Shown here in pieces: positions 15,299 through 63,460 of a stretch of 64,000 nucleotides of DNA. The DNA lies in the NCBI GenBank assembly GCA_963812135.1, contig CAWETU010000001.1, forward strand, positions 1,664,001 to 1,728,000. Direction: 5' to 3'. Position numbers and translations under genes: made by a program. The stretch's first letter is position 1. The number at the start of each line of letters is the position of its first letter. The notes beneath the pieces are model-generated. The model ran no database searches, had not been told where the DNA came from, and worked only from the letters and a program-made list of their open reading frames with translations. The stretch comes from Vulcanimicrobiota bacterium (GTDB lineage: Bacteria; Vulcanimicrobiota; Vulcanimicrobiia; Eremiobacterales; Eremiobacteraceae).

Positions 15299-16728
15299 GC
15301 CACGCTCCTTCTCGCGGTGCGCGTTCGCGCTGCCATGGCGATCGCGGCGAAGACCGCATCCGCCTTCGCGCGGCACTCGGCGTCTTCTCGCGACGGTACG
15401 GATGCGGAGACGATTCCAGCGCCGGCCGCGCAATGATAGATCCCATCGTAGGCGTGCGCGCTGCGCAGTGTGATGCACGAATCAAGCGATCCGTCGAAGC
15501 CAAGCCGGCACACGGCCCCGGCGTAGAAACCCCGCCGGCGCCCCTCGAGCTCCGCGATCAGCTCCATCGCGCGTATCTTGGGAGCGCCGCTGACCGTGCC
15601 GGCGGGAAACGCCGCCGCAAATGCGTCCAGCCCGTCGCAGCCAGGGCGCAAACGACCTGATACCTCGGAGACGAGATGCATGACATGACTGAAGCGCTCG
15701 ACCGACAGCAGTTCGTCCACATGGACGCTGCCGGGCATGCTGACGCGCGCGAGGTCGTTGCGGGCGAGGTCCACGAGCATGATGTGTTCGGCGCGCTCCT
15801 TCGGATCGCGACGCAGTTGGCGCGCGCGGCGGGCGTCTGCGATGGGGTCGTGCGCACGGGTGCGCGTTCCCGCAAGTGGCCGGATGCGCGCCTGACCCCC
15901 AGCGCACGCGACGAGCATCTCAGGCGACGACCCGAACAGCTGGCCCCAGCCGAGGTCCAAGAAGAACATATACGGCGAAGGATTCACGGCGCGCAGCGCA
16001 CGGTATGCGTCGAATGCCAGCGTCGTCAAGGGCGCCTCCCAGCGCTGCGCGAGGACGATCTGGAACGCCTCGCCCGCCTCGATCGCCTCCTTCGCCTGGG
16101 CGACCGCCGTTTGATACGGGAGCGGGCCGGCGACGGGCATGGGCTCTATCGGTTGGCTGCCCCGAACCAGCGGCGCGATACGCGCTTCGTCGAGGACGTC
16201 GACCACGCGTCGCGCGACGCCCGCGCCGTCGTGAGTCGAAAACGCGTGCACGTCGAGCTCGTGCGACAAGTGGTCGAAGACCACCAGAACCTCGGGCACG
16301 ACTAGATGCAGGTCAGGCATCGGATCGCTGCCGCGCGGCAATGTCGGGAGACGCTCGAAGCGGCCGGCGAATTCGTAGGCAGCGGCCCCATACGCTCCGA
16401 GGAATTCGGAGGTCGCGTGCGCGGGAGCAAGCCGCGCCAGCAGCCGGCGCGCGGCGCCGAGGGGATCGGACGCGTCGCCGGCGAGCGCCACGTGCTCGCC
16501 GTCGATCTGAAGGCGCACGCCCTGATCGTCGACGATCAGCTCCCCGCGGGCGCCGAGGCCGATGATCGAATGGCGCGCCGCCTGGCCAGCGCCGGGCGCG
16601 CTTTCGAACAGGAACGAGTGCCCCATGCGCAAGCCGCGCAGGGCGGCAAACGCGGCGATGGGGGTAACGCCATCCGCGAGGAGGCGCTCGGTCACAACTG
16701 GGTTCGATGACATCGTTGGTACGCTCAT
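15295..16728 (-). CDS. trpE: Anthranilate synthase component I
   Basis: FLFES, NPSPY, SSPE, PLAGT, EHIMLVDLARND, FPAGTVSGAPK; start at 16728 after GGAGA. Confidence 0.95.
   Translation of the reverse strand: MSVPTMSSNPVVTERLLADGVTPIAAFAALRGLRMGHSFLFESAPGAGQAARHSIIGLGARGELIVDDQGVRLQIDGEHVALAGDASDPLGAARRLLARLAPAHATSEFLGAYGAAAYEFAGRFERLPTLPRGSDPMPDLHLVVPEVLVVFDHLSHELDVHAFSTHDGAGVARRVVDVLDEARIAPLVRGSQPIEPMPVAGPLPYQTAVAQAKEAIEAGEAFQIVLAQRWEAPLTTLAFDAYRALRAVNPSPYMFFLDLGWGQLFGSSPEMLVACAGGQARIRPLAGTRTRAHDPIADARRARQLRRDPKERAEHIMLVDLARNDLARVSMPGSVHVDELLSVERFSHVMHLVSEVSGRLRPGCDGLDAFAAAFPAGTVSGAPKIRAMELIAELEGRRRGFYAGAVCRLGFDGSLDSCITLRSAHAYDGIYHCAAGAGIVSASVPSREDAECRAKADAVFAAIAMAARTRTARRSVA

Positions 16729-41188: not shown

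Positions 41189-41192
<4 letters not shown>
41169..41192 (-). repeat. GTAG-type REP-like palindrome, copy 1 (overlaps rpoC stop)
   Basis: GTAG-CGGTCGAG-TTTA-CTCGACCG. Confidence 0.7.
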
Positions 41193-44944
<3,752 letters not shown>

Positions 44945-44997
44945 TTACATCCCTTAGCAAGCCACATGTTATCGTCGTCGTATTGTTCTGTCTTCGT

Positions 44998-48816
<3,819 letters not shown>

Positions 48817-49173: not shown

Positions 49174-50907
49174 TCAGTCGGACACCGCTGGGACCGGCTC
49201 GAGCATCTGTTTCTCGTAGAGCGATGCGTAGAGGCCGCCCCGGCGCAGCAATTCGTCATGCGTGCCTTGTTCGACGATCTTGCCGTCGGCCAGCACGAGG
49301 ATCGTGGCCGCTCGCCTGATCGTCGACAGCCGGTGCGCGATGATGAACGTCGTCCGTCCGACCAGCAGATGGTCGAGCGCCTCCCCGATCAACGCCTCTG
49401 AGTGGGCGTCCAGCGATGAGGTCGCCTCATCGAGGATCAGGATGCGCGGGTCGCGCAGGATGGCGCGCGCGATCGCGATGCGCTGGCGCTCGCCGCCCGA
49501 TAGGCGCATACCGCGCGAGCCGACGAGGGTCGCGTAGCCGTCCGGCAGCTTGCTGATGAACTCGTGCGCGTTGGCCAGCCGCGCCGCTTCTTCGATCTGC
49601 GCGTGCGTGGCGTCAAGCCGGCCATACCGTATGTTCTCTTCGATCGAGTCAGAGAACAGCTGCGGGTCCTGCGGCACGACGGCGATCGCGCCGCGCAGCG
49701 AGTGCAGCGTCACCCCGGCGACGTCGTGACCGTCCACGAGGAGCGATCCGCCGGTGGACTCGTAAAATCGCGGCACGAGATTGACCAGGGTCGTCTTACC
49801 TGCGCCCGACGGTCCGACGAGCGCCACGATTTCGCCCGGCGCGACGCTGGCGGATATTCCCTTGAGCACATCGCGCGCGCCGTCATAGCTAAAGCGCACG
49901 TCCTTGAACTCGACCGCTCCGCGCACATCGTGCAGGTCGGTCTTGTCCGCCTCTTCGGCCGTCTCCACCGGCAGATCCATCAGCTCGAAGACGCGCGTGG
50001 CAGCCGCAAACGCTTTGTTCAAGCTGCCGATGTAGTTCGACAGCTGCGCGATCGGGTTGGCGACCGTCGCGGTGACGGTGAAGAACATGAAGAACTGGGT
50101 ATAGGTCAGCGTCCCCGACACGACCTGATAGAGCGAGAACCCGGCCAGGATGAGCACGCCGATCATCACGACGAAATCGATCACCGGCGTCTGCGTCAGC
50201 GAGATCTGCGCGAGCTTCATCGATGCGCCGAAGTTCGCGTCGTTCCGATTCTCGAAGCGAGCTATCTCGTAGGGCTCCCGTGTGAACGCTTTGATGATGC
50301 GCATCGACTCGAGCGACTCTTGCAGCAACGAGTTCAGGTCGGCCACGCGGTTCAGCGCCGTCGTCGTCACGCGCCGAAGCACGCCCGAAAAGCGATAGAC
50401 AGCCCAGGAGATCAGCGGTGCGACTGCCATGGTGACCAGCGTCAGCTGCCAGTTCAGATAGAACATCACCGCGAGACCGGCGAGCAGCGTGAGGCTTGCG
50501 CTTAAGAACAGCGGCAACGCCGAGACGCCTTCCACCAGCACGAGCATGTCGTTGGAAAAACGCGACAGGATATCGCCGCTGCGCCACTTGTCGAACGTCG
50601 GCAGCGCCAGGTATTGGATCCGCGCGAACAGGTCGCGCCGGATGTTACGCACGACCTGTTGGCCGACCGACGTCAGCGCATACCCGCCGAAATACTGGCC
50701 CGCGTTTTTTAGCATGTTCAAGGCCAGCGCGGCGGCCAGGGCGATGCCGAGACCCTGCAAACTGCGATCCGACACTGCCTGGACCAGCAGCTTCACGGCC
50801 CCGGCGTAGCCGACGGTCGCCAGCGACGCGATCGCGGTGAGCAGCAGTCCGCCCAGCATGGGCGCGACAAACGGGCGCAGGTAGCGCACCAAACGCTGGT
50901 AGGTCAT
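49174..50907 (-). CDS. ABC exporter, fused permease/ATPase (MsbA-like)
   Basis: TM domain plus GPSGAGKT, LSGGERQR, LDEATS, IAHRLST; start at ATG 50907. Confidence 0.92.
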   Translation of the reverse strand: MTYQRLVRYLRPFVAPMLGGLLLTAIASLATVGYAGAVKLLVQAVSDRSLQGLGIALAAALALNMLKNAGQYFGGYALTSVGQQVVRNIRRDLFARIQYLALPTFDKWRSGDILSRFSNDMLVLVEGVSALPLFLSASLTLLAGLAVMFYLNWQLTLVTMAVAPLISWAVYRFSGVLRRVTTTALNRVADLNSLLQESLESMRIIKAFTREPYEIARFENRNDANFGASMKLAQISLTQTPVIDFVVMIGVLILAGFSLYQVVSGTLTYTQFFMFFTVTATVANPIAQLSNYIGSLNKAFAAATRVFELMDLPVETAEEADKTDLHDVRGAVEFKDVRFSYDGARDVLKGISASVAPGEIVALVGPSGAGKTTLVNLVPRFYESTGGSLLVDGHDVAGVTLHSLRGAIAVVPQDPQLFSDSIEENIRYGRLDATHAQIEEAARLANAHEFISKLPDGYATLVGSRGMRLSGGERQRIAIARAILRDPRILILDEATSSLDAHSEALIGEALDHLLVGRTTFIIAHRLSTIRRAATILVLADGKIVEQGTHDELLRRGGLYASLYEKQMLEPVPAVSD

Positions 50908-50976
50908 TGGCTCGCATTCTTTGGTGAAACATGGGAGCGCCCCTCGCGGTAAAGCGGGCAAAGGGGGCTTGACGTC

Positions 50977-51555
50977 ATGGGTTGCTACTATCATCCGCGT
51001 TTGGCGACGGCACTACGCTGTCACGATTGCGGCCGCGAGATCTGTCAGACGTGCTCGGACGCCGGCATCTGCCCGGGCTGCCGGCTCGGGCGCGCGCTCC
51101 AAGGAGCGCCGGCGAAGAGCGCCGTCGCGGTCGCGGAAGCGCCGCGGCCGGGAACTTGGACCGCGCCGCGCGCCACCGCAAACGTCAGCGCCGTACGCGC
51201 GCCCGTCGTGCACGCCGATGAAGGGACGGCGTCCAATGAAGACCGCGTCCTCGCCGCGCTCTGCTATCCACTGTGGCCGCTCGCGCTCTTGCTCTTGCTG
51301 CTGCCATCAGGCCGCAGCGGATTCGTGCGCTTCCACGTGTTGCAGTCGCTCGGTGTGAACGCGCTCGGTGTCGCGCTGTACGTCATCTACGCGCTGTTGG
51401 CCAACGTACCGCTCATCGGATGGCAAAGCGCGTTCGCGCTGCCGTTCTTGGTGCCGCTGTGGATGCTTGGGGACTTGTACCTCGCCATCCGAGCCGCCAG
51501 CGGCCAGATGCCGCGCGTGCCATTCGCTGCGGATTGGGCGTCGCGCTTCCGCTAA
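50977..51555 (+). CDS. B-box zinc finger plus DUF4870/Tic20-like membrane domain protein
   Basis: CYYH...CHDC...CQTC...CPGC; LAALCY, FVRFH..QSL, three hydrophobic helices. Confidence 0.7.
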   Translation: MGCYYHPRLATALRCHDCGREICQTCSDAGICPGCRLGRALQGAPAKSAVAVAEAPRPGTWTAPRATANVSAVRAPVVHADEGTASNEDRVLAALCYPLWPLALLLLLLPSGRSGFVRFHVLQSLGVNALGVALYVIYALLANVPLIGWQSAFALPFLVPLWMLGDLYLAIRAASGQMPRVPFAADWASRFR

Positions 51556-52952
51556 GTCTCGCGGAAGGCGCGGTAGCGCTTGAGGAACTCGCGCGCCGTG
51601 CTCTCGTGGTCCACGATCGGCTGCGGGTATTGATCGGGCGTGAAGAAGCTCAGCTCGATCTGGTGCTGGCGATCCATCCGCCAGGGCGCGAGCGCCGCCG
51701 CGGTGGGAAGCTTGCGCAACTCGGGCACCCAGCGGCGCACGTACACCGCTTGGGCGTCGAATTGCCGCGCTTGCTTCTCGGGATTGTAGATGCGCGGATA
51801 CGCGGCTTGATCCGATCCGACGCCGGCGAGCCATTGCCAGTTGCCGTCGCACAGCGCTTCGTCGGCCGCGAGATATTGGTCCATCCACACATCCCGGCCC
51901 GACCGCCAATCCAGACCAAGATCGAAACAGCAGAACGATGCGGCGCAGATCGCCGCGCGTTGATGGACGAGTCCATGTGTGTGTAGCTGCCGCATCGCGG
52001 CGTCCACGAACGGATAACCGGTGCGGCCTTTGCGCCAGATCTCCAGCTTCTCGTCGTCGGTCGACCAAGGAAAGCTGCGCATCTTCTCCTGCAGCGCCTC
52101 GTCGTGCAGTTCGGGCACGAAGTACGCGAGCTGGGTGAAGAAATCGCGCAGCGCGAGTTGCCGCATGAATGCAGCCATGGACCGGCGCTCTTGCGCGAGC
52201 GTCCACGACCACGCCATGCGTCGCGCCATCGCCTGATGCACGACGCGCGGACTCACGCACCCAAAGCGCAGATAGGGCGCGAGACCCGAGGTCCCGTCGG
52301 TGGCCGGGTATTGCCCGCTTACGATGTAGTCGGCGGCGCGTGCGGTCACAAATCGCTCTAGAGCGCTGCGCGCAGCGGCCTCCCCCGCGGGCACCGGCGG
52401 AGCCGTGTCGTCCTCAGGCAGCGCGCCCGCCTGCTCGTCCCGCCCGTTCGGAATGACCTCGCCCGAGGGCACCGCGACGTCGAGCGATTGCCACGCCGCG
52501 AAGAACGGCGGGAACACGCGATAACCTTCGCCCTCGGATTGCTTGAGCTCAGCGACCGCCTCCGGTTCATGCACGACGTCGCCCTTTAACTTATGCAGCG
52601 CGATATCGGAGCGGCGCAGTGCGGTGGCCACTTCCGACTCGACGGCGCGCTCGCTGCGCGAGTACGATCGCGAGCAGTAGACGGCGGTCGCCTCGAAACG
52701 CTGGACTACGCGGACGAGCGCCTCAGACGGCGAGCCGCGCACGAGCGTGAGCGTCGCGTCGCGTTTTTCGAGCACCGTGCGCAGCGCGCGCAGCGAGCCT
52801 ATGGCGAATGCGCGTTGTCGCGCGTTCAGCTTGTCGAGCTCGTCGAGGCAGTACACCGCGTAGACGGGTCCGCCGCTACCCGCAGCGGCATTGAGGCCGG
52901 GATTGTCCGTCAGGCGCAGATCGCGCCGGAACCAGAACAGGCTCGCGCTCAT
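51552..52952 (-). CDS. Photolyase/cryptochrome family protein (atypical active site)
   Basis: WFRRDLRLTDN, TSGLAPYLRFG, GRTGYPFVDAAMRQL, DWR.G, GNWQW, RIYNP..Q..FD, WVPEL, YP.PIVDH. Confidence 0.93.
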   Translation of the reverse strand: MSASLFWFRRDLRLTDNPGLNAAAGSGGPVYAVYCLDELDKLNARQRAFAIGSLRALRTVLEKRDATLTLVRGSPSEALVRVVQRFEATAVYCSRSYSRSERAVESEVATALRRSDIALHKLKGDVVHEPEAVAELKQSEGEGYRVFPPFFAAWQSLDVAVPSGEVIPNGRDEQAGALPEDDTAPPVPAGEAAARSALERFVTARAADYIVSGQYPATDGTSGLAPYLRFGCVSPRVVHQAMARRMAWSWTLAQERRSMAAFMRQLALRDFFTQLAYFVPELHDEALQEKMRSFPWSTDDEKLEIWRKGRTGYPFVDAAMRQLHTHGLVHQRAAICAASFCCFDLGLDWRSGRDVWMDQYLAADEALCDGNWQWLAGVGSDQAAYPRIYNPEKQARQFDAQAVYVRRWVPELRKLPTAAALAPWRMDRQHQIELSFFTPDQYPQPIVDHESTAREFLKRYRAFRET

Positions 52953-53032
52953 CTCATGCCGTCTTCAATGCGACGCGCCGCTCGGTTCTGACGACCCGGC
53001 GGCGCGCGAGGCTCGGATCGGGGTCCAGCGCC

Positions 53033-53491
53033 TTATTTCAAAGACGCGACGTAGGCGGCGACATCAGCGATGTCCTTGGGGGACAGCGGGAGCTTGGGCA
53101 TCCCGGAATCCTTATCGATCGCTTGCGGATTCATCACCATGTACGCCACCTGGCCGGCCTTGAGGCCGGTGCCCGCGAGAGACGGGCCGACGGTACCGTT
53201 CTTGCCGCCTGCGCCGTGACAGCTCTCGCAATTGGCGGAGAAGACTTTCGCGCCGGCTGTCGCGTCACCGGCAGCGACTTTGGCGTTTGGCAACTTGGCG
53301 AGCGGGATCGGCAGCGGGCTGGCCGCCATCGCCATGGCGCTTGGCATCGCACTGGCTGCTGCCGAAGCGGCCGGCGCGGTCGTCGCCGCGGTATTCGAAC
53401 TCGATGAATTGTCAGTCGACGACTTCGTGCATGCGGCCGAAAACGCGAGGCTTACCGCCACCACAACGAGCAACACCGACGTTTTCTTCAC
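53033..53491 (-). CDS. Lipoprotein cytochrome c (single heme)
   Basis: Lipobox SAAC, Ala/Ser linker, CESCH, GPSL, distal Met in SGMP. Confidence 0.9.
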   Translation of the reverse strand: MKKTSVLLVVVAVSLAFSAACTKSSTDNSSSSNTAATTAPAASAAASAMPSAMAMAASPLPIPLAKLPNAKVAAGDATAGAKVFSANCESCHGAGGKNGTVGPSLAGTGLKAGQVAYMVMNPQAIDKDSGMPKLPLSPKDIADVAAYVASLK

Positions 53492-53532
53492 GGTCTCTTG
53501 CTCCTCTCAAGGGTCGATTGAGTCGCGACGCT

Positions 53533-54798
53533 TTAGGGGGGATCACGCCCCAATCCTTCCCGTTGTTCCCGCACGAATGACAGCGCAAACGCACCGCACG
53601 TCACGAACAGCGCGACCAACGCGAACAGCATGCGATAGCCCAAACCGAGATCGCCGGTGCTCGCGCCGACGCGGTCGACGAGCAGTCCGCCGGCGATCGG
53701 CGCGGCGACTTGCGGCGCCGACGCCCCAAGGTTCCAGATGGCCATGAGCGCGCCCGCCCGACCTGGCGGCAACAGATTGCACGCCAGCGCCCAATCGACC
53801 GAATAATACGCGCCCCAGCCGATGCCCAGCAGCACCGAGAGCAGACCGACAAGCGCGAGCGACTTCGTGAAGACCAGCGCGCCCGCGCCGGCGACGAGCA
53901 GCGCGAGCGCTATATAGATGATGGATTTTTTCGGGAACCGGTCGGCGAGCCGGCCCGCCGGTACCGTGCCGACCAACGAACAGCCGACCATCAGGAGCAG
54001 CAGCAGCAGGCTCGTCCCCAGATAATTCGCCACGTGCAATGCGAAGCGCAAATAGAACCCGAGGAACGGCAGGATCAGATACAGGCCTGCGCTCACGAAT
54101 CCACGCGACACGACTAGCCACCAGAAACTCGTGCGGCTCGGCCACGCCGCAAGAACGGGCTGGGGCGGTGGCACGTCGCCTTCGCGTTCGCCGACACCGA
54201 AGATCGTCACCACCAGTGCGACGGCGAGCACCACCGCGATCACCGAGACCAGCGCGATGAAGCCGGCGGTGTACATCTGTGGCGTGATGCCGGGACCGGG
54301 CTGATGGACGAATATCTTTGCGAGCAGCAGGCCGACTGCGGTGCCGGCCAGACGCATGAGTCCCATGAACGCCGAAGCGCGGCCTTGTTGGGATTTCGCC
54401 ACGCGGTCGGGGATCAGCGCCTGATAGGGTCCGCCGGCGATGTTCAACGCGATCTGGATCGCCGCGAACGATACCAGCACGGCGCCGAATGACGGCGCGA
54501 GCGCGAACGCATACAACGCGACGATATCGAGCACGGTGCCGACGATGATGAACGGCATGCGCTTGCGCAAGACGTCGGACGCGCGGCCCGCGCCATACTG
54601 CGTGACGATCGCGAGCAACGCGCCAAGCCCGCCCAGCAGGGCTGTTGCGCGGCCGTACGCAGTTTCAGGTATGAAGCGCGCGATATCCGCTTGCAGCGTT
54701 GCTCCCAGCAGCGCCGCCCAATGCATTTCCCAGGCGAACCAGTAGAACGCGAGCACGAACTGGTTTTGCGGCCGGCTGCCCGGCTCGGCCGCGCTCAT
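53533..54798 (-). CDS. MFS transporter
   Basis: G.ASD...R.PF, YQALIPDRV...QGRASA, GRLADR; about 12 TM helices; start at ATG 54798. Confidence 0.88.
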   Translation of the reverse strand: MSAAEPGSRPQNQFVLAFYWFAWEMHWAALLGATLQADIARFIPETAYGRATALLGGLGALLAIVTQYGAGRASDVLRKRMPFIIVGTVLDIVALYAFALAPSFGAVLVSFAAIQIALNIAGGPYQALIPDRVAKSQQGRASAFMGLMRLAGTAVGLLLAKIFVHQPGPGITPQMYTAGFIALVSVIAVVLAVALVVTIFGVGEREGDVPPPQPVLAAWPSRTSFWWLVVSRGFVSAGLYLILPFLGFYLRFALHVANYLGTSLLLLLLMVGCSLVGTVPAGRLADRFPKKSIIYIALALLVAGAGALVFTKSLALVGLLSVLLGIGWGAYYSVDWALACNLLPPGRAGALMAIWNLGASAPQVAAPIAGGLLVDRVGASTGDLGLGYRMLFALVALFVTCGAFALSFVREQREGLGRDPP

Positions 54799-55544
54799 TC
54801 GGCGGCCGCCTGCAAACGCCGGTCGGCGTACTCGAAATCTGCCAGCTCGTCGCAATCCATCGCGAGCGCCGGGTCTGCGCCTCTGATCGGCTCGAACTTC
54901 AAACCAGTCAGCTCGACAAGCCGAGCCTTGACGTCGGCGATGCGCAGTTGATGGCTCGCGTATCGGAGGGCGAGTCGCGGGCCGAGCAATCCAGCCAGCC
55001 CGAGCAGGCTCTTGCGCGCCGCGAAGGCGCGCTTGAGCAATGCTATATTGCGCAGCACTTTTTCTGCGTCGAGCACGAGCACGCTACCGCCGGTCCACTC
55101 GCCGTCCGCCAATCGCGCGAAGCTCGAGCGCCCACCGGGAAACGCGGCGGAGAACTCTTCGCGCGTGTAGATCGGATAGGCGCACGCGACATCCTCTGGT
55201 ACCAACGCCAGCAACCCTGCGATGCCGTGCGATGTGACGAACGGCAGGTCAGCCGCGGCGATCACGCACCGGCCCGAGCCGGCGCTTTGCAGCGCCGCGA
55301 TCACGTTTTCTTCGCCGCTGGCGCGCTCGTCAAGCCAATCATCCGCCGCTGCGCCGCACTCGCGTACCGCGGGCGGACCGACCACACTGATGCGCGCGAT
55401 CTCGGGAACGCCGCGCAGCGCCTCCACGAGGATCGCCAAGAGCGTCTTGCCGCCAACGCGCGCAAGCGCTTTGATGTCGGTGCCTTCGCGCCGCGCCTCT
55501 TCTGGTCCAAGGCGGCCGGCAGCCGCGATCACCGCGTTGAGCAC
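54795..55544 (-). CDS. MobA/CobY-like nucleotidyltransferase
   Basis: AVIAAAG...IKAL..VGG, ADLPFV, MDCD..D motifs of the NTP_transf_3 fold. Confidence 0.75.
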   Translation of the reverse strand: MLNAVIAAAGRLGPEEARREGTDIKALARVGGKTLLAILVEALRGVPEIARISVVGPPAVRECGAAADDWLDERASGEENVIAALQSAGSGRCVIAAADLPFVTSHGIAGLLALVPEDVACAYPIYTREEFSAAFPGGRSSFARLADGEWTGGSVLVLDAEKVLRNIALLKRAFAARKSLLGLAGLLGPRLALRYASHQLRIADVKARLVELTGLKFEPIRGADPALAMDCDELADFEYADRRLQAAAE

Positions 55545-57425: not shown

Positions 57426-57710
57426 GTGGATTCCAAACGAGTTCTCGTCGGCAAGTCGGTGACCGTGCGGTCGCTCGACGTCGAGCCCAAGTATTTCACC
57501 GACGTGCATCGCGCACGCATCGGGCAGACCGGACGCGTGCACGCGGTCGTCGCCGGCGATCGCGACGATCCGCTTATCAAGGTCGGGTTCGAAGAGGGGA
57601 CGCAGATCGTTTTCTATCGACTCGCCGACCTAAGCGTCGATCACGACGCCGAGCCGGAGACGCCGAAACGTCACGGCCTCCGGGCGAGCCACCTACCGAA
57701 ACTGGGCTGA
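57426..57710 (+). CDS. Small hypothetical protein, SH3/KOW-like
   Basis: GAGGTG RBS then GTG; MDSKRVLVGKSVTV...IGQTGRV...IKVGF...FYRLADL beta-rich pattern. Confidence 0.6.
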   Translation: MDSKRVLVGKSVTVRSLDVEPKYFTDVHRARIGQTGRVHAVVAGDRDDPLIKVGFEEGTQIVFYRLADLSVDHDAEPETPKRHGLRASHLPKLG

Positions 57711-58559
57711 GAGCCACTCCAAGCCTTCAACCACGCGCGGCCCGTTGCGCTCGATGATCGAGTCGTTTGGCGGCTGAAACACGCGCCCACGTTGCACTGC
57801 GCGCAGGCTGCGCCACGGTTCGCGCGCACGCACGTCCGAACCGAACGGCGTATCCTTCGAGACGATGATGACATCCGGATCGGCGCGCAGGATCGCTTCG
57901 GCGCTCAGGTCGGGATACGGCTGGTCTACATCGCCTGCGATGTTCTCGCCGCCCGCGAGCGTGATCAGATCGTTGATGTACGACGACTTTCCAACGGTGA
58001 ATCCGGGCAATCCGAGCAAGAAAAGGACGCGCGGCCGATGCGCGGTGGTCAGCGGGCGCGCCACGATGCGCTTGAGGCGTTGCCGGATTTGCGCCGCGAG
58101 CGCCTTGCCTTGCGGTGCGCGGTCGCATGCTTTCGCGACACCGGCGATGTCCGCGTAGAGATCGTCGAGATTGCGATTGGGCAGATAGGTCACCGGAATG
58201 CCAAGACGGGCCTGGATCGGCCCGCCCTCGTGCTCCTGATCGTGCACGGCGATGGCAACACTCGGATGCAACTGTGCGATGCGCTCGAGATCTGCATGCG
58301 TAAGGTCAGCGACGTGCGGCAGATCTTTGGCAGTCGGCGGATAGTCGTCATACGTGGTGTCGGCCACCAGCGAATCGCCGCAACCGATCGCGAACGCGAT
58401 CTCCGTGAGCGACGGGGCGAGCGAGATGATGCGCGGCCCGTGGGTCGCCGGCTCTAGTGTAGCGGTCGAATTTATTCGACCGTGCGCGCAGCCCGCCAGC
58501 AGGCTCAGGCTTCCCACGAGCGCTGATAGCATGCGCAATGCCTTGCGCGTCTGCGTCAT
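57693..58559 (-). CDS. btuF: Cobalamin ABC transporter substrate-binding lipoprotein
   Basis: Lipobox LAGC, RIISLAPSLTEI, YP, E.I..L.P, GPR; in a riboswitch-controlled operon. Confidence 0.85.
   Translation of the reverse strand: MTQTRKALRMLSALVGSLSLLAGCAHGRINSTATLEPATHGPRIISLAPSLTEIAFAIGCGDSLVADTTYDDYPPTAKDLPHVADLTHADLERIAQLHPSVAIAVHDQEHEGGPIQARLGIPVTYLPNRNLDDLYADIAGVAKACDRAPQGKALAAQIRQRLKRIVARPLTTAHRPRVLFLLGLPGFTVGKSSYINDLITLAGGENIAGDVDQPYPDLSAEAILRADPDVIIVSKDTPFGSDVRAREPWRSLRAVQRGRVFQPPNDSIIERNGPRVVEGLEWLSAQFR
58459..58482 (+). repeat. GTAG-type REP-like palindrome, copy 2 (inside btuF)
   Basis: GTAG-CGGTCGAA-TTTA-TTCGACCG. Confidence 0.7.
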
Positions 58560-60586
58560 TTCGCGGTGAGCCGCACGCTGAACGTCGTACCAAGCACGGG
58601 ATAACCATAGACCTGCGGCACGCGCTGGTCGGTCAGGTTGTCCACCCGCAGCAACAGGTTGAGGTGCGGGCTAAGGTTGCGCGAGACATGCAGCCCGACT
58701 GTCGCGTATGGCGGCAACAGATGCAAGTTCTCCTCATCGGCGTACTGTCGTCCGACGAACAGCAAGTCAAATCCGTCCTCGCCGATCGCCTGCTCGTGCG
58801 GATCGTACCCAGCTCGGCGCCAGATCTCAAGCGTCGCGGTCGCCGTGGGCCGATAGAGCAGACGGTTTCCGGTCGTCACAACGCCATTGATGTCGGGCGC
58901 GGTGCTCAGATCTTCCGCGAGCGGGTAGTCCGTGTAGGATGCTTGGGCGCCGAGTCGCAGGTTCCACGCGTTGCTGACCTGCACGCTGAAGCCGCGCACG
59001 CGGGCGCGTCCGACGTTGAACGGTAAGAAGTCCCCGAGCATGTCGATCGCCTGATTGACGATGAGATTGTTCGTATCGCTGCCGAAAAACGTGGCCGACG
59101 CGTCGATGCCTTTGTTGTTCGTCACGACACCGGCGTCGAAGGTCGAAGCATATTCCGGCTGCAACTTCGGGTTGCCGAAACCCGGGAAGTAGAGTTCATC
59201 GAGATTCGGCGCGCGGAACGAACGCGCATAACTTGCCCGCACCAGTGTGCCGTACCACGTCTCCCTGCCGCCCACTTGCTGGCTCGCCGCAAAGCTCGGC
59301 AGCGTCGTGCTTGGCGTGCCTTGCGTGTGCGCGAACTGCACGGCTGCATCGAGACGCGGTCCCTTGTCACCGGCGCGATATTCGTCCCCGACGTAGAGGT
59401 TGGTCGTGGAATCTCGAGCGACAAGCTGCATGGGCACATCGATCGTGCCTTGGAAGAGCGCGACGGTGCCGTTCTGTTCGTATTTCGCGGTGAGCGTATT
59501 GGTCCGACCAAGCTGAACGAGCTGCTCGACCGAAAAGCCGCGCTGTGTCGCGAGCGTCAACGTATCGTACGGAAATGATGGAGTCGGGTCGTAGAAATGC
59601 AAGCGCCGGCCGTCCACGTAGACGATGGCGGTGGTTAGCGCATTCGCGGTGCTGTACCGAAGGTTGAGTGAATTGCGCTGCACGTCGCGCTGCTGGCGCG
59701 CGAACACGCTCACGAATGATGGGCCGAATTGCACGCTACCGGGTGCGCCGACCTCCGACGTGTTATCCTCCAGATGTAAGTCGGCGGCGAGACCGCGCCC
59801 GTTTCCAAAAAAGTGAAAGCACGCGCACAACGTGATGTCGGAGGCGTGCAAGTCGTTGTTCGTGCGCGTGCCGCCGGCGAGGCCGGCGAAGCTCGGGTAG
59901 TCAAACGTGTTGTTGGCGTAGCGCGTGAAGGCGTCGACCACGACGCCGCCGTTCGCGCCGCTGCTGCTGACCTGGGCTCCGCTCCCGAAATCCCCTTGAT
60001 AGCCGACTTGCGCGTACGCGGAATCGTGCGGAGGGGAGAACGGATGCTTGGTGGATATCTCCACGACGCCGCCGATGGCGCCAGATCCATATCGCGACGA
60101 CATGCCGCCTTCGATCACGACGATGTTCTGGACACCGTCGAGCGGCATCGATGTGAAATCAGTGACCCCGGTATCGCCTTCATTGACGGGCCGGCCGTCG
60201 AGCAAGATCAGCGTCTGCGATGCGCTGTTGCCGCGTAGCGCAACGGTCTGGAGCGCGCCAGCCGTGCCTGTTTGGCGAACGAGAACACCGGGAACGAAGC
60301 GCAGTGCATCGCCGATCGTTCGCGCGCCGAGACGCTGCAGCTCGATGACCGGCAAAGTGTATCCTTCGCGCGGGCCTGCATGGGCGACGACCTGGCCGAG
60401 GTAGTTACTGTACAGCGTGATCGTCCTGAGTTTTGGCGTCGGCGATGGGCTCGGAACAGCGGAGGGCGATGGAGATGGCGATGGCGAGAGTGTCGGCGCA
60501 GGCGCCGTGCTGTCGGCCTTGCTCTGCGCCGCCCCGAGAACGCACGCGAGCGCGATAGCAATGCACGTCGCAGCGCGCACGCTCAT
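58556..60586 (-). CDS. btuB: TonB-dependent outer-membrane receptor (BtuB-like)
   Basis: Signal peptide, plug motifs (DALRFVPGV, LRG...LILLDG, YGSGAIGGVV), FRAPNLDELY, NPKLQPE, NLTD..Y; start at ATG 60586. Confidence 0.85.
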   Translation of the reverse strand: MSVRAATCIAIALACVLGAAQSKADSTAPAPTLSPSPSPSPSAVPSPSPTPKLRTITLYSNYLGQVVAHAGPREGYTLPVIELQRLGARTIGDALRFVPGVLVRQTGTAGALQTVALRGNSASQTLILLDGRPVNEGDTGVTDFTSMPLDGVQNIVVIEGGMSSRYGSGAIGGVVEISTKHPFSPPHDSAYAQVGYQGDFGSGAQVSSSGANGGVVVDAFTRYANNTFDYPSFAGLAGGTRTNNDLHASDITLCACFHFFGNGRGLAADLHLEDNTSEVGAPGSVQFGPSFVSVFARQQRDVQRNSLNLRYSTANALTTAIVYVDGRRLHFYDPTPSFPYDTLTLATQRGFSVEQLVQLGRTNTLTAKYEQNGTVALFQGTIDVPMQLVARDSTTNLYVGDEYRAGDKGPRLDAAVQFAHTQGTPSTTLPSFAASQQVGGRETWYGTLVRASYARSFRAPNLDELYFPGFGNPKLQPEYASTFDAGVVTNNKGIDASATFFGSDTNNLIVNQAIDMLGDFLPFNVGRARVRGFSVQVSNAWNLRLGAQASYTDYPLAEDLSTAPDINGVVTTGNRLLYRPTATATLEIWRRAGYDPHEQAIGEDGFDLLFVGRQYADEENLHLLPPYATVGLHVSRNLSPHLNLLLRVDNLTDQRVPQVYGYPVLGTTFSVRLTAK

Positions 60587-60591
60587 TGAAT

Positions 60592-61326
60592 TCAGCGCGG
60601 GGTGCATACGATGTACCCCTCGGGATCTTCGTGCGTGGTGACGTCGACGCCGAACGCCCGAGTGAGCGTCGGCGCCCGAAAGACTTGCTCCGGCGCACCG
60701 CACTCGAGCACGCCGCCGGCGAGCAGCGCGACCGAATCGGCGAAGCGCGCCGCGAGCGTGAGATCGTGGATCGCAGCCAAAACCGCGACCCCCGATCGCG
60801 CGAGCGTCTTGAGCGTCCGCAGCACCTCGAGCTGATAGCGCAGATCGAGATGTGTCGTCGGCTCGTCGATGAGCAGCACGCGCGCTTGCGCGGCGAGCGC
60901 AGCGGCGATCCACGCGCGTTGCAACTCGCCAGCGCTCAACGTCGCTGCGGCGTCATTCGCGCGCTCGAGCAATCCCGTCCGTTCGAGCGCCGCATCAACG
61001 GCGTTATGCTCTGAAGGCGCACTACCCAACTGCCACCATGGCTTGCGCAAGGCGACCACGTATCCGGCTAGTTGCGCCGGCGTGACGTCGGGCGGCAATG
61101 CGAGCGAGGTCGCGACCAACGCGACGCGCTCCGGGCGCTCGATAGAACCTGCGCTCGTCTTCTGCGTCCCCGCGAGCAGGCGGAGCAAACTTGACTTGCC
61201 GGCGCCGTTCGGGCCGACGAGCGCCGTCATCTGACCGTCCGATAAGGCAATGTCGAGATCGGTGAACACCGACCGGGCGCCGTAGCGTACTGCCAGCCCG
61301 CGCCCGAGCAAAGCCGGCGCGTTCAT
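60592..61326 (-). CDS. btuD: Iron/cobalamin ABC transporter ATPase
   Basis: GPNGAGKSS, LSAGELQR, DEPTTHLD, HDL; start at ATG 61326. Confidence 0.85.
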   Translation of the reverse strand: MNAPALLGRGLAVRYGARSVFTDLDIALSDGQMTALVGPNGAGKSSLLRLLAGTQKTSAGSIERPERVALVATSLALPPDVTPAQLAGYVVALRKPWWQLGSAPSEHNAVDAALERTGLLERANDAAATLSAGELQRAWIAAALAAQARVLLIDEPTTHLDLRYQLEVLRTLKTLARSGVAVLAAIHDLTLAARFADSVALLAGGVLECGAPEQVFRAPTLTRAFGVDVTTHEDPEGYIVCTPR

Positions 61327-62345
61327 AGCTCCACCGGCCGGCGCGCTATCATAAGGAAGAACGGCACGCCGACCAGAGCTAGCAGGACCCCAAGCGGCAG
61401 CTCCGCCGGCGCGACAACCGTGCGCGCGAATGCGTCGGCGAGCATGACGACGGCGGCTCCGCCCGCAGCGCTTGCGGGCAGCAGCCAAACGACGTCGCCG
61501 CCCACTAGGCGGCGTGCCCCGTGCGGCACCATGAGGCCGACAAATCCGACGATGCCGGACACCGCGACGCACGCTGCCGCGACGAGCGCCGCCGCCGCGA
61601 GCACGGCGAAGCGCGTTCGTTCAACAGGCACACCTAATCCAGCGGCGGCTTCGGCGCCGAGTCGCAATACGTTGAGCGGTCGCAGCAAGAACACCGTCGC
61701 ACACAGGCCGAGCGATAGATACACGACGGTCCAGCCAAGATCGCTCCAACCTCTGCCGCCGATTCCGCCGGCGAGCCAGCCGAGAATCGTGAGACTGTCG
61801 GACGCGCCGCTGCGCAACAATAGGATGGTGATCGCGGCTGCGCATAACGATGAGATCGCGATCCCGAAAAGGACGAGCCGCAGATTGGCGCTCGGCCCGG
61901 AGCCCGCAGCCAGCAGCGTGACGAGCGCGGCGCACGCCAGACCGCCGGCGAACCCGAGCACCGGCACCACGGCGAACGACAAGCCGGCGGCGATGCTCGC
62001 GCTCGCAGCGAGCGCCGCACCTGCCGACACGCCGGTCACGTACGGATCGACCAGCGGATTCCGGAAGAGCGCTTGGAGCATCGCGCCCGCGACGCCGAGG
62101 CCTGCGCCCACGCACGCCGCGATCGCCAAACGGGGCAGCCTGATATCCCAGACGATGGTGTGCGCGAGACTGGGCGCTGCTGGGTGCGCGAGCGCCGACA
62201 GGATCGAGGATGGATCGATCGGCAGGCTGCCGACAGCGAGCGAAGCGGCCGCCGCGGAGAGCGCGACGCCGCAAAGCCCGAGCAGCCAAATAGGTTTGGA
62301 TGAAAAGGCGCGCGCGGCGCCGCTATGCGAGGAGACCACTGCCAT
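61323..62345 (-). CDS. btuC: FecCD/BtuC family permease
   Basis: RLPR, QALFRNPLVDP, GVSAGA, GFVGL.VPH, ELP.G. Confidence 0.88.
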   Translation of the reverse strand: MAVVSSHSGAARAFSSKPIWLLGLCGVALSAAAASLAVGSLPIDPSSILSALAHPAAPSLAHTIVWDIRLPRLAIAACVGAGLGVAGAMLQALFRNPLVDPYVTGVSAGAALAASASIAAGLSFAVVPVLGFAGGLACAALVTLLAAGSGPSANLRLVLFGIAISSLCAAAITILLLRSGASDSLTILGWLAGGIGGRGWSDLGWTVVYLSLGLCATVFLLRPLNVLRLGAEAAAGLGVPVERTRFAVLAAAALVAAACVAVSGIVGFVGLMVPHGARRLVGGDVVWLLPASAAGGAAVVMLADAFARTVVAPAELPLGVLLALVGVPFFLMIARRPVEL

Positions 62346-62602: not shown

Positions 62603-63460
62603 GTGCAATACTTCGAACCGAATTTTGTCGACGAGGCGTTGGTCTTATTGGACCGCTTCGCGCCCACAGCCCGCGTGCTTGCCGGCGGTACGCTGCTCGG
62701 CCCCGAGGTGCGTCGCGGCGACTCCGACACCTCGACGATCGTCAACATCAAGCGCATTCCTGAATTGAAAGATATCGGTCTGGACGGCGAGGTCTTGCGT
62801 GTCGGCGCCCTCGTCACCGCCGCCGAGCTAGCCGCCGATGACATGGTGCGCCGCTATGCTCCGCTCGTGGCGCTTGCGGCTGGCACGCTCGGTGCCCGCC
62901 AGTTGCGCAACGTCGCGACGATCGGCGGCAACCTGTGCTCGACGCATCCGGCTGCCGACATCGTCGTCGCGCTGCTTGCGAGCGACGCACGATGCGTGGT
63001 CGCTGACATCGTCGCCGGACCAACCAGCATCACCGTGGATGATTTCTTGGTACTAGCAGCGTCACGCGATCCGCGCACGTTGTTGACCGCGGTCGAGATC
63101 CCAACGATACCGGTGTCGGTCTCGTATCAAAAGATGCAAACCAGACGCGCCTTCGAGATGGCGTTGGTGGCGGCCGGCGTCGCGGTACAGATTGTGGAGG
63201 GCACGATTCGCAACGCGCGCGTGGCGCTGGGCGGCGTGGCGCCATCGGTCGTGCGGGCGCCAAACGCCGAGCTAGGATTGCTCGGCAAACGTGCCGATGA
63301 GGAGACCGCTCGCGTCGCGGCTCGTATCGCGGCCGCGCAAGACACGCGCGCCGAAGACAACCTGCATGCATCGGCCGAGTATCGGCGGCATCTCGTCGCG
63401 GTGCTGTGCGAGCGCGCGTTGCGCGACGCGTTCGCGCAGCCGCCCCGGGTCGCGAACTGA
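62603..63460 (+). CDS. Xanthine dehydrogenase/CoxM family FAD-binding subunit
   Basis: LAGGT, QLRNVATIGGNL, AD, ASAEYRRHL. Confidence 0.9.
   Translation: MQYFEPNFVDEALVLLDRFAPTARVLAGGTLLGPEVRRGDSDTSTIVNIKRIPELKDIGLDGEVLRVGALVTAAELAADDMVRRYAPLVALAAGTLGARQLRNVATIGGNLCSTHPAADIVVALLASDARCVVADIVAGPTSITVDDFLVLAASRDPRTLLTAVEIPTIPVSVSYQKMQTRRAFEMALVAAGVAVQIVEGTIRNARVALGGVAPSVVRAPNAELGLLGKRADEETARVAARIAAAQDTRAEDNLHASAEYRRHLVAVLCERALRDAFAQPPRVAN

Follow-up and report, generated by a model that had tools for sequence, protein, structure and literature searches.

A photolyase-homology protein of Eremiobacteraceae with a rewired flavin pocket: a candidate cryptochrome-like offshoot of class I-like photolyases

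The window analysed here is a stretch of 64,000 nucleotides from a Vulcanimicrobiota bacterium (assembly GCA_963812135.1, contig CAWETU010000001.1, positions 1,664,001 to 1,728,000), and the subject of this report is a photolyase-homology gene located at 51552..52952 on its minus strand. The encoded protein of 466 amino acids and its close relatives, hereafter clade 1, are best filed as a lineage-specific variant within the photolyase/cryptochrome family, in which the flavin pocket has converged on that of the type I animal cryptochromes at three sites and, uniquely, has no Arg-Asp pair. We tentatively propose, with a little less than even confidence, that the protein may be a class-I-derived, cryptochrome-like photo/redox sensor that binds flavin adenine dinucleotide (FAD) and no longer repairs cyclobutane pyrimidine dimers (CPDs). 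The weight given to this and to every other reading below rests on sequence, genomic context and predicted fold.

Substitutions in the flavin and lesion pockets

The gene was delimited from the list of open reading frames (ORFs), from Pfam and from an alignment to the E. coli photolyase 1DNP. Its ORF is intact and full length (466 codons, N-terminus MSASLFWFRRD) and encodes the two-domain architecture of photolyases, with an N-terminal photolyase domain at residues 4-156 (PF00875, 1.5e-39) and an FAD-binding domain at residues 262-461 (PF03441, 9.8e-65). The protein ends with the photolyase-homology region (PHR), residue 464 corresponding to E. coli residue 468 of 471, and has no C-terminal tail. 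Fused forms were sought among proteins of 817-2330 residues and none was found at E <= 1e-60, which is weak evidence; PF04244, the DPRP-type domain of FeS-BCP and prokaryotic 6-4 enzymes, had no match in the protein or in the whole genome. By sequence, the top solved relatives were the Synechococcus class I structures 1OWL/1TEZ (235 bits), with the Agrobacterium class III enzyme 4U63 at 224 bits, 1DNP at 202 bits and the Drosophila cryptochrome chains at just 107-110 bits. The protein scored well under the curated cut-off of every NCBIfam photolyase/cryptochrome model, with 268.4 against 506 for NF007955, 295.2 against 884.6 for TIGR03556, 219.6 against 603.85 for TIGR02766 (the test for plant cryptochromes and class III) and 176.4 against 317.05 for TIGR02765 (the test for CRY-DASH).

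Site numbers follow the E. coli literature and were assigned by HMMER alignment to 1DNP (W306 being chain position 306); the query number is lower than the E. coli number by 10 over query residues 293-396 and by 13 around residues 192-225. This alignment bore out the substitutions that an earlier note on this DNA had read by eye, namely R344->A334, D372->A362 and N378->C368 in the flavin pocket, the last at the site facing flavin N5, and the CPD-pocket losses R226->G213, E274->Q265 and W277->L268. It added N341->Q331, M345->I335, L351->C341, V352->C342, A377->L367, G381->N371, W338->L328, W271->F262 and S238->A225. All five residues of the isoalloxazine pocket (344, 372, 377, 378 and 381) differ from those of E. 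coli, being A334, A362, L367, C368 and N371 here, and with Ala334 and Ala362 the Arg344-Asp372 salt bridge is absent. The CPD in class I photolyases is contacted by R226, E274, W277, N341, M345 and W384; the window protein has G, Q, L, Q, I and W at these sites, E. coli W384 being retained as W374. A 6-4-type His-His pair, expected at sites 341 and 345, is absent, with Q and I found there.

The rarity of these states was judged against a comparison set of 143 rows of at least 400 residues, made up of 140 diverse class I/III representatives at 50% identity from outside the Eremiobacteria clade and three rows of a sister form, group 2, described below. Among the outside representatives, R344 was Arg, L351 was Leu and W384 was Trp in 140/140 each, D372 was Asp in 139/140 and N378 was Asn in 138/140; W277 was Trp in 137 of the 143 rows, group 2 included. 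Clade 1 itself consists of 110 protein clusters, the window protein and P0002-P0110 from a word-index search, at 48-94% identity, and its common motifs are H[QR]RAA and (A/E)AD.ALC.GNWQ. The HQRAA/ALCDG-type substitutions thus define a conserved clade and not a strain oddity, as they recur in the 110 clusters and in 31/32 genomes of the family. When 1.84 billion representatives were searched exhaustively, a single full-length 50% representative stood for the clade (P0040, 624 bits), and the next match scored 339 bits. Where source names are given for the clusters, they are Eremiobacteraeota or Eremiobacteraceae, with a sole exception labelled Acidoferrales. Two clade members, P0083 and L069, come from metagenome-assembled genomes labelled Acidoferrales/Acidiferrales, which may reflect an inconsistency of binning or labelling or a rare transfer.

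In clade 1, constraint is seen at the flavin-facing sites, whereas the lesion pocket is relaxed. Over the 110 clusters, site 344 is Ala in 102 and Gly in 8, site 372 is Glu in 61 and Ala in 44, and Leu377, Cys378 and Asn381 occur in 97, 105 and 108 clusters, respectively; Asp374 is found in 109, Trp359 in 110 and Trp382 in 109. Site 226 is Gly in 49, Ala in 49 and Ser in 8, site 274 is Arg in 90 and Gln in 18, and site 277 is Leu in 82, Trp in 8, Arg in 6, Gln in 6 and Met in 5. Site 384 is divided between Trp (56) and Arg (50), Arg being present in 14 of the 24 genome copies from the window's own family. R342 is kept in 105/110 clusters and R278 in 100/110. Arg at site 384 in half of the clade and at site 274 in most of it brings positive charge into the former lesion pocket; the window protein, with Trp and Gln at these sites, is unlike the Arg-bearing members.

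Two features pointed out by the earlier note hold for the window protein but not for the clade as a whole. The Trp triad is kept here (W306, W359 and W382 are W296, W349 and W372), but site 306 is Trp in just 82 of the 110 clusters. Likewise, the cysteine run ICAASFCCF is present (C336, C341 and C342) but is not conserved as a set. Site 351 is Cys in 87/110 and site 352 in 70/110, site 346 is C, V or A by eye, Cys is absent from both 351 and 352 in 7/110 clusters by eye, and Cys351 is kept in three of the four clusters without Cys378, again by eye. A metal-binding cysteine cluster was rejected because the cysteines are not kept as a set and Cys378 is the sole near-invariant cysteine of the group.

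The functional meaning of the pocket sites has been described for other members of the family. According to the available extract of PMC9356274, the isoalloxazine pocket consists of the Arg344-Asp372 salt bridge on the re face, Asn378 at N5, and Ala377 and Gly381 on the si face, and the Arg-Asp pair is conserved in the structures of CPD, DASH and 6-4 photolyases. The same extract gives Asn378 as conserved in CPD, DASH and 6-4 enzymes and replaced by Asp in plant cryptochromes and by Cys in type I animal cryptochromes, and site 381 as Asn in DASH, 6-4 and type I animal cryptochromes. Site 377 is small or polar in about 86% of class I/III enzymes and is Ile, Leu or Val in animal cryptochromes (V415 in Drosophila cryptochrome), and a hydrophobic residue there destabilises FADH- and lowers repair in vitro and in vivo (PMC9356274, same extract).

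Among known systems, the class I CPD photolyases (Synechococcus/Anacystis 1QNF/1OWL and E. coli 1DNP) are the best sequence and structural matches and share the two-domain architecture, the length, the FAD anchors and Trp359/Trp382 with the clade-1 protein, whereas all five isoalloxazine-pocket residues and most CPD contacts differ. Plant cryptochromes and class III enzymes resemble it in fold, with a match to CRY1-PHR at a template modelling (TM) score of 0.91, but plant cryptochromes have Asp at site 378 where the clade-1 protein has Cys, and the clade falls outside the class III-like clade with a support of 100 in the Shimodaira-Hasegawa-like approximate likelihood ratio test (SH-aLRT). The change of W277 to Leu is a further plant cryptochrome likeness, Leu being presumably also the residue of Arabidopsis CRY1. 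Drosophila-type cryptochrome shares Cys at N5, a bulky hydrophobic residue at 377 and Asn at 381 with the clade-1 protein (PMC9356274, available extract), but it has a regulatory C-terminal tail that the clade-1 protein lacks. Its Arg381-Asp410 pair, conserved and functionally required according to the extract available of PMC8213227, has no equivalent in clade 1. Since the clade-1 protein is unrelated to the type I animal branch, its Leu-Cys-Asn likeness to these cryptochromes is convergence.

Selection, predicted fold, descent and distribution

The gene is functional and under purifying selection. The pairwise ratio of nonsynonymous to synonymous divergence (dN/dS; NG86 method, 466 codons) was 0.07-0.21 in 19 pairs with at least 68% identity, and the least saturated pairs gave 0.07 at dS 0.35 and 0.09 at dS 0.66; L027 was left out of this set because the motif filter found no ORF there. 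Among the loci of the window's family, the between-genome identity of the photolyase-like gene resembles that of its neighbours. With the ORF intact in 31/32 family genomes, these dN/dS values and the conserved states, the earlier judgement that the gene is full length and not in decay was upheld.

The AlphaFold2 model, built from an alignment of 126 rows, had a mean predicted local distance difference test score (pLDDT) of 95.9 and a predicted TM score (pTM) of 0.93. The three pocket helices were intact at 331-344, 349-359 and 365-376, with sites 344 and 372 and the new cysteines lying on the helices 331-344 and 365-376. The best Foldseek matches were the class I photolyases 1QNF and 1OWM (TM 0.91), and Arabidopsis CRY1-PHR (1U3C) matched at TM 0.91. 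In the 126-row alignment, which contains the clade and canonical enzymes, Y209, W349 and W372 show no variation, and T221, S222, L224, R269 and D364 are conserved in at least 90% of rows. Their E. coli equivalents are Y222, W359, W382, T234, S235, L237, R278 and D374, in which we take Y222, T234, S235, L237, R278 and D374 to be the FAD contacts. Because these anchoring residues are conserved, FAD binding is probably retained by the clade-1 protein, and the suggestion of a different cofactor in the earlier note is not supported.

The descent of the clade was examined in a tree of 105 rows, computed by maximum likelihood with the quick search of IQ-TREE under LG+G4; support was given by SH-aLRT only, and no outgroup was included. 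Clade 1 contributed 18 rows, taken as every sixth cluster with 440 or more residues, and group 2 contributed 14; a further 70 were every second representative with 430 or more residues, and E. coli Phr and two canonical copies from the window's family completed the set. The tree contained no 6-4 or animal cryptochrome rows, and E. coli Phr was its only named anchor. Support was 100 for clade 1, 100 for group 2 and 100 for the two joined (stem 0.46), and long stem branches of 0.46 and 0.39 set clade 1 apart from the class I rows. The joint clade falls with class I-like rows that bear a DGD..NN(G/N)GNWQW-type motif and outside the class III-like clade (support 100), and the two canonical copies cluster near the E. 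coli-type enzymes. Clade 1 and group 2 thus make up a single offshoot of class I-like photolyases, with full support. The node joining this offshoot to particular class I rows had a support of 89 on a near-zero branch of an unrooted tree; because this node is weak and the tree has no outgroup, our claim is limited to derivation from class I-like photolyases. The term "new class" used in the earlier note is too strong for a lineage-specific offshoot that nests among class I-like photolyases and is confined to one bacterial class.

Group 2 resembles clade 1 in the loss of W277, E274, N341 and N378, in the Leu377 and Asn381 states and in the genes that flank it. Unlike clade 1, it keeps R344, combined with Glu372, as well as L351 and W338, carries mostly Ala or Ser instead of Cys at 378, and mostly lies downstream of a pair of genes for an extracytoplasmic function (ECF) sigma factor and an anti-sigma factor (16/20 loci). 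In the 16 rows counted, site 344 is R in 16/16, site 372 is E in 16/16, site 378 is A in 14, S in 1 and G in 1, site 377 is L in 14 and V in 2, site 381 is N in 16, site 341 is P in 16 and site 351 is L in 15, and site 277 is R, H, L, Q or M and never W. Because group 2 holds these intermediate states, a rewiring in two steps is suggested.

The two forms are divided between two families, the window's own (f1, Eremiobacteraceae by source names) and a sister family (f2, Baltobacteraceae by source names). In a sample of 401 genomes of the phylum, copies of at least 54% identity were restricted to f1, where they occurred in 28/29 genomes besides the window genome, and the group-2 form, 39-45% identical, was present in 289/297 f2 genomes, mostly as a single match. 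With PF03441 as query, the variant was found as a full-length ORF in 31/32 f1 genomes; the one miss, G154, is 94% complete. These tallies take in genomes flagged as unpublished, namely G128, G232 and G344 of f1 and nine f2 genomes of the 401-genome sample, and without the three f1 genomes the PF03441-based count is 28/29. Four f1 genomes (G067, G128, G187 and G211) hold an extra copy at 294-305 bits, compared with 193-221 bits for the full-length variant. Two canonical f1 copies that were inspected have the motifs ELIWRDF, HNRLRM and NNGGWQW.

Across the class, 110 of 111 genomes of at least 90% completeness had a PF03441 match, and the distribution of scores was bimodal. One canonical-scoring copy, at 264-305 bits, was found in each of 36/111 genomes (3 f1, 1 f3 and 32 f2), and the f1 and f2 variant, at 186-221 bits, lay some 80 bits under the canonical copies; three f3 copies scored 226-233 bits, and two copies matching profile positions 1-153 only scored 235-239 bits. 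The variant is near-universal in the class and the canonical enzyme is patchy. That both are kept in about a third of the genomes argues for a non-redundant, diverged function of the variant. A canonical-scoring copy in a sister-family genome (G121:C97:48485-49078) has an in-frame TGA.

A second, canonical photolyase was also looked for in the window genome itself, which is 98.4% complete, and no further PF03441 or PF00875 match was found there. The same genome encodes dark excision repair (UvrB, 1059.6 bits), and no BLUF domain was found in it. Production of an 8-hydroxy-5-deazaflavin antenna by the host was considered and rejected, as the search gave no clear F0 synthase: the CofH-like matches scored 328 and 285 against the F420 CofH cut-off of 374 bits. 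These matches are a pair of adjacent radical-SAM genes of CofH/CofG type (G000:C5:303212-306159; L149 and L150) that may serve another pathway, such as menaquinone synthesis. In a scan of named genomes with generic patterns, only 6 of the 80 loci kept belonged to the clade, and the cultured Vulcanimicrobium strain was not among them. One cultured relative, Vulcanimicrobium alpinus, shows phototaxis to blue, green and red light, and the extract available of its description makes no mention of a photolyase or cryptochrome (PMC9758169). A full-text literature search for a photolyase or cryptochrome of Eremiobacterota/WPS-2, with subscription journals outside its coverage, returned no paper on the lineage. 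A general search on new photolyase classes returned known groups only, and no prokaryotic photolyase or cryptochrome with Cys at N5 was described in the titles and opening lines of abstracts among the matches listed.

Candidate functions of the variant

Given a sensor function, a photocycle and a signalling role of the following kind can be inferred. The clade-1 protein would still bind FAD in the usual U-shaped site. Cys at N5, Leu377, Asn381 and the loss of Arg344 and Asp372 would disfavour the FADH- needed for repair, and the resting flavin would probably be oxidised. Under blue light, Trp382 and Trp359 might then pass electrons to the flavin, and a short-lived anionic semiquinone would form, as in a Drosophila-type cryptochrome; the redox change of the flavin would be read out by a partner protein. 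In evolutionary terms, the common ancestor of the class may first have lost the lesion pocket and Asn378, and f1 may subsequently have lost the Arg-Asp pair, gained Cys378 (usually together with Cys351 and/or Cys352) and lost the linkage to the ECF sigma/anti-sigma pair.

Several observations weigh against such a sensor. The clade-1 protein has neither a C-terminal extension nor a fused output domain, and no partner was identified. The loss of a positively charged Arg should also destabilise the anionic semiquinone, and the distal Trp306 is missing in 28/110 clusters. In about two thirds of the 111 class genomes the variant is the sole FAD_binding_7 protein, so that a residual repair role is conceivable. 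No reaction-centre proteins were found in the window genome, and a need for light sensing is thus not obvious. According to the available extract of PMC8213227, the R381-D410 pair of Drosophila cryptochrome is conserved across cryptochromes and is a proposed allosteric activation switch, and the mutants cited there comprise a constitutively active R381A, an inactive D410N and a double mutant that is unresponsive to light. On this evidence, the natural double loss of the Arg-Asp pair implies that the clade-1 protein cannot signal in the manner of Drosophila cryptochrome.

A more far-reaching form of the sensor proposal is that these proteins are a new kind of prokaryotic cryptochrome, lacking an Arg-Asp pair that is regarded as conserved across the family and having Cys at N5, which would signal light or redox conditions to a new partner in soil bacteria that are not phototrophic, while the form in the sister family would be wired to an ECF sigma/anti-sigma module. 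We regard this as unlikely. Under it, the nearby Cys351 and Cys352 might add thiol-based or adduct-type photochemistry.

The variant could instead still repair DNA in a light-driven reaction, through an unusual active site or with another lesion or nucleic acid as substrate, and serve as the photolyase of the lineage. It is the sole FAD_binding_7/DNA_photolyase protein in the 98%-complete window genome, which has no FeS-BCP, and likewise in about two thirds of the 111 class genomes; R342 and R278 are kept in 105/110 and 100/110 clusters, and the f2 orthologue, behind an ECF sigma/anti-sigma pair in 16/20 loci, resembles stress-regulated photolyase genes, for which the sigma-E regulon of Rhodobacter is the comparison case. 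However, six CPD-contact sites (226, 274, 277, 341 and 345, and 384 in half of the clade) are replaced and vary within the clade, the His-His pair of 6-4 enzymes is lacking at 341/345 (Q and I), the scores are far under the NCBIfam photolyase cut-offs, and 36/111 genomes keep a canonical copy alongside. The replaced Asn at N5, the hydrophobic residue at 377 and the missing Arg-Asp pair each speak against a stable FADH-, according to the mutant data in the extract of PMC9356274. On balance, we consider retained repair improbable.

A reuse of the fold that does not depend on light is also unlikely in our estimate, although slightly less so than retained repair; the protein would then be a dark redox enzyme, a thiol redox sensor acting through the flavin and Cys378 (plus Cys351/352), or a scaffold like the mammalian cryptochromes. 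Its non-phototrophic host, the new cysteines of the pocket helices (378 in 105/110, 351 in 87 and 352 in 70 clusters), the loss of the distal Trp in 28/110 clusters and the tight linkage to a cytochrome c gene would all fit this explanation. However, Trp382 and Trp359 remain invariant, and the signal peptide of the linked cytochrome c should place that protein outside the cytoplasm. Cys378 alone is near-invariant; an obligatory dithiol is unsupported because Cys351 and Cys352 are both absent in 7/110 clusters and three of the four clusters lacking Cys378 keep Cys351. By contrast, a decaying or functionless photolyase remnant is highly improbable and in effect already refuted. Many residues that are invariant elsewhere have been lost, and the PF03441 score is about 80 bits under the canonical copies, but such a remnant does not agree with dN/dS values of 0.07-0.21, an ORF of full length in 31/32 family genomes, a between-genome identity similar to that of neighbour genes, conserved new states and a confident predicted fold.

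The lineage represents a natural, selected double knockout of the Arg-Asp pair, with an insect-like Cys at N5 in addition, and its origin from a class I photolyase in bacteria was independent. Its sister lineage, standing at an intermediate step, offers a handle on the roles of the salt bridge and the N5 residue and on the transition from photolyase to non-repair protein. The annotation "deoxyribodipyrimidine photo-lyase" given in the sources probably overstates the capacity for photoreactivation of most genomes of this widespread soil lineage.

Gene neighbourhood and the sigma module of the sister family

The gene directly upstream of the photolyase-like gene, on the same strand and 80 bp before its start, encodes a small monohaem cytochrome c whose signal peptide is lipoprotein-like (53033..53491, minus strand; Pfam Cytochrome_CBB3 and Cytochrom_C). 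A cytochrome c gene is upstream in 25/27 other f1 loci, the remaining two being cut on that side, and in 10 of 20 f2 loci, which were drawn from several genera; at the f2 locus L047, the cytochrome c and PHR-like genes share 4 nt, the stop of the first overlapping the start of the second. In the window, further upstream and again on the same strand, lies a major facilitator superfamily (MFS) transporter (53533..54855, minus strand; Pfam MFS_1), which recurs in 24/27 other f1 loci, had no match in the 20 f2 loci and takes the place held in f2 by the ECF sigma/anti-sigma pair (16/20 loci). On the downstream side, a convergent gene on the plus strand (50977..51555) encodes a protein of 192 residues in which an N-terminal Cys-rich segment resembling a zinc ribbon precedes a membrane domain (weak DUF4870 match, E 0.0045, below cut-off), and its stop overlaps that of the photolyase-like gene by 4 bp. 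This gene is present in 18/27 other f1 loci and 20/20 f2 loci. Beyond it lies an ATP-binding cassette (ABC) exporter with membrane and ATPase parts (49174..50994, minus strand; Pfam ABC_membrane and ABC_tran), found in 19/27 and 20/20 loci, respectively. The shared flanks, zinc-ribbon gene and ABC exporter, mark the f1 and f2 genes as positional orthologues.

No RNA runs covering window positions 51552-53491 were listed. A sigma-70 promoter scan of 51300-55100 gave 0 promoters, terminator-like sites were at chance level, and none lay between the photolyase-like and cytochrome c genes.

In 16 of the 20 f2 loci, a same-strand gene for an ECF sigma factor (Sigma70_r2 and Sigma70_r4_2) and then one for an anti-sigma factor stand upstream of the group-2 gene. 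The anti-sigma factor is a membrane protein with an H-x3-C-x2-C motif and a weakly TonB_C-like C-terminus. The gene order in the f2 loci L043-L062 (for example L061:5444-6561 on the minus strand and L047:1446-3037 on the plus strand) is sigma, anti-sigma, sometimes cytochrome c, and the photolyase-like gene. A search with the pattern GTCAC-N16-18-CGTT found an ECF-type promoter, GTCAC-N16-CGTT, before the sigma gene in 15 of the 16 loci as the exact pattern, the sixteenth having a CGCT variant by eye. Neither the cytochrome c genes nor the PHR-like genes had the pattern immediately in front of them, and the f1 loci lacked it altogether; its matches in the window, at 16691, 25741 and 44032, are all far from the photolyase-like gene. 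Direct sigma control of the photolyase-like gene was therefore dropped as a general claim, the motif sitting before the sigma gene only, and control by the f2 sigma factor is plausible solely where the genes are contiguous. The window genome is without an orthologue of the f2 sigma factor, its best match having 30% identity compared with 70-84% among the 15 other f2 loci in which the pair is retained.

Farther from the photolyase-like gene, rpoC and rpoB lie a few kb away (41189..48816, minus strand), and the conserved synteny may in part reflect a stable chromosomal neighbourhood and not a functional linkage. The window also contains a cluster of a TonB-dependent receptor, a periplasmic binding protein and a FecCD permease at 57693..62345 (minus strand), and a CoxM-like flavoprotein subunit of a molybdopterin dehydrogenase (FAD_binding_5 and CO_deh_flav_C) at 62603..63460 (plus strand).

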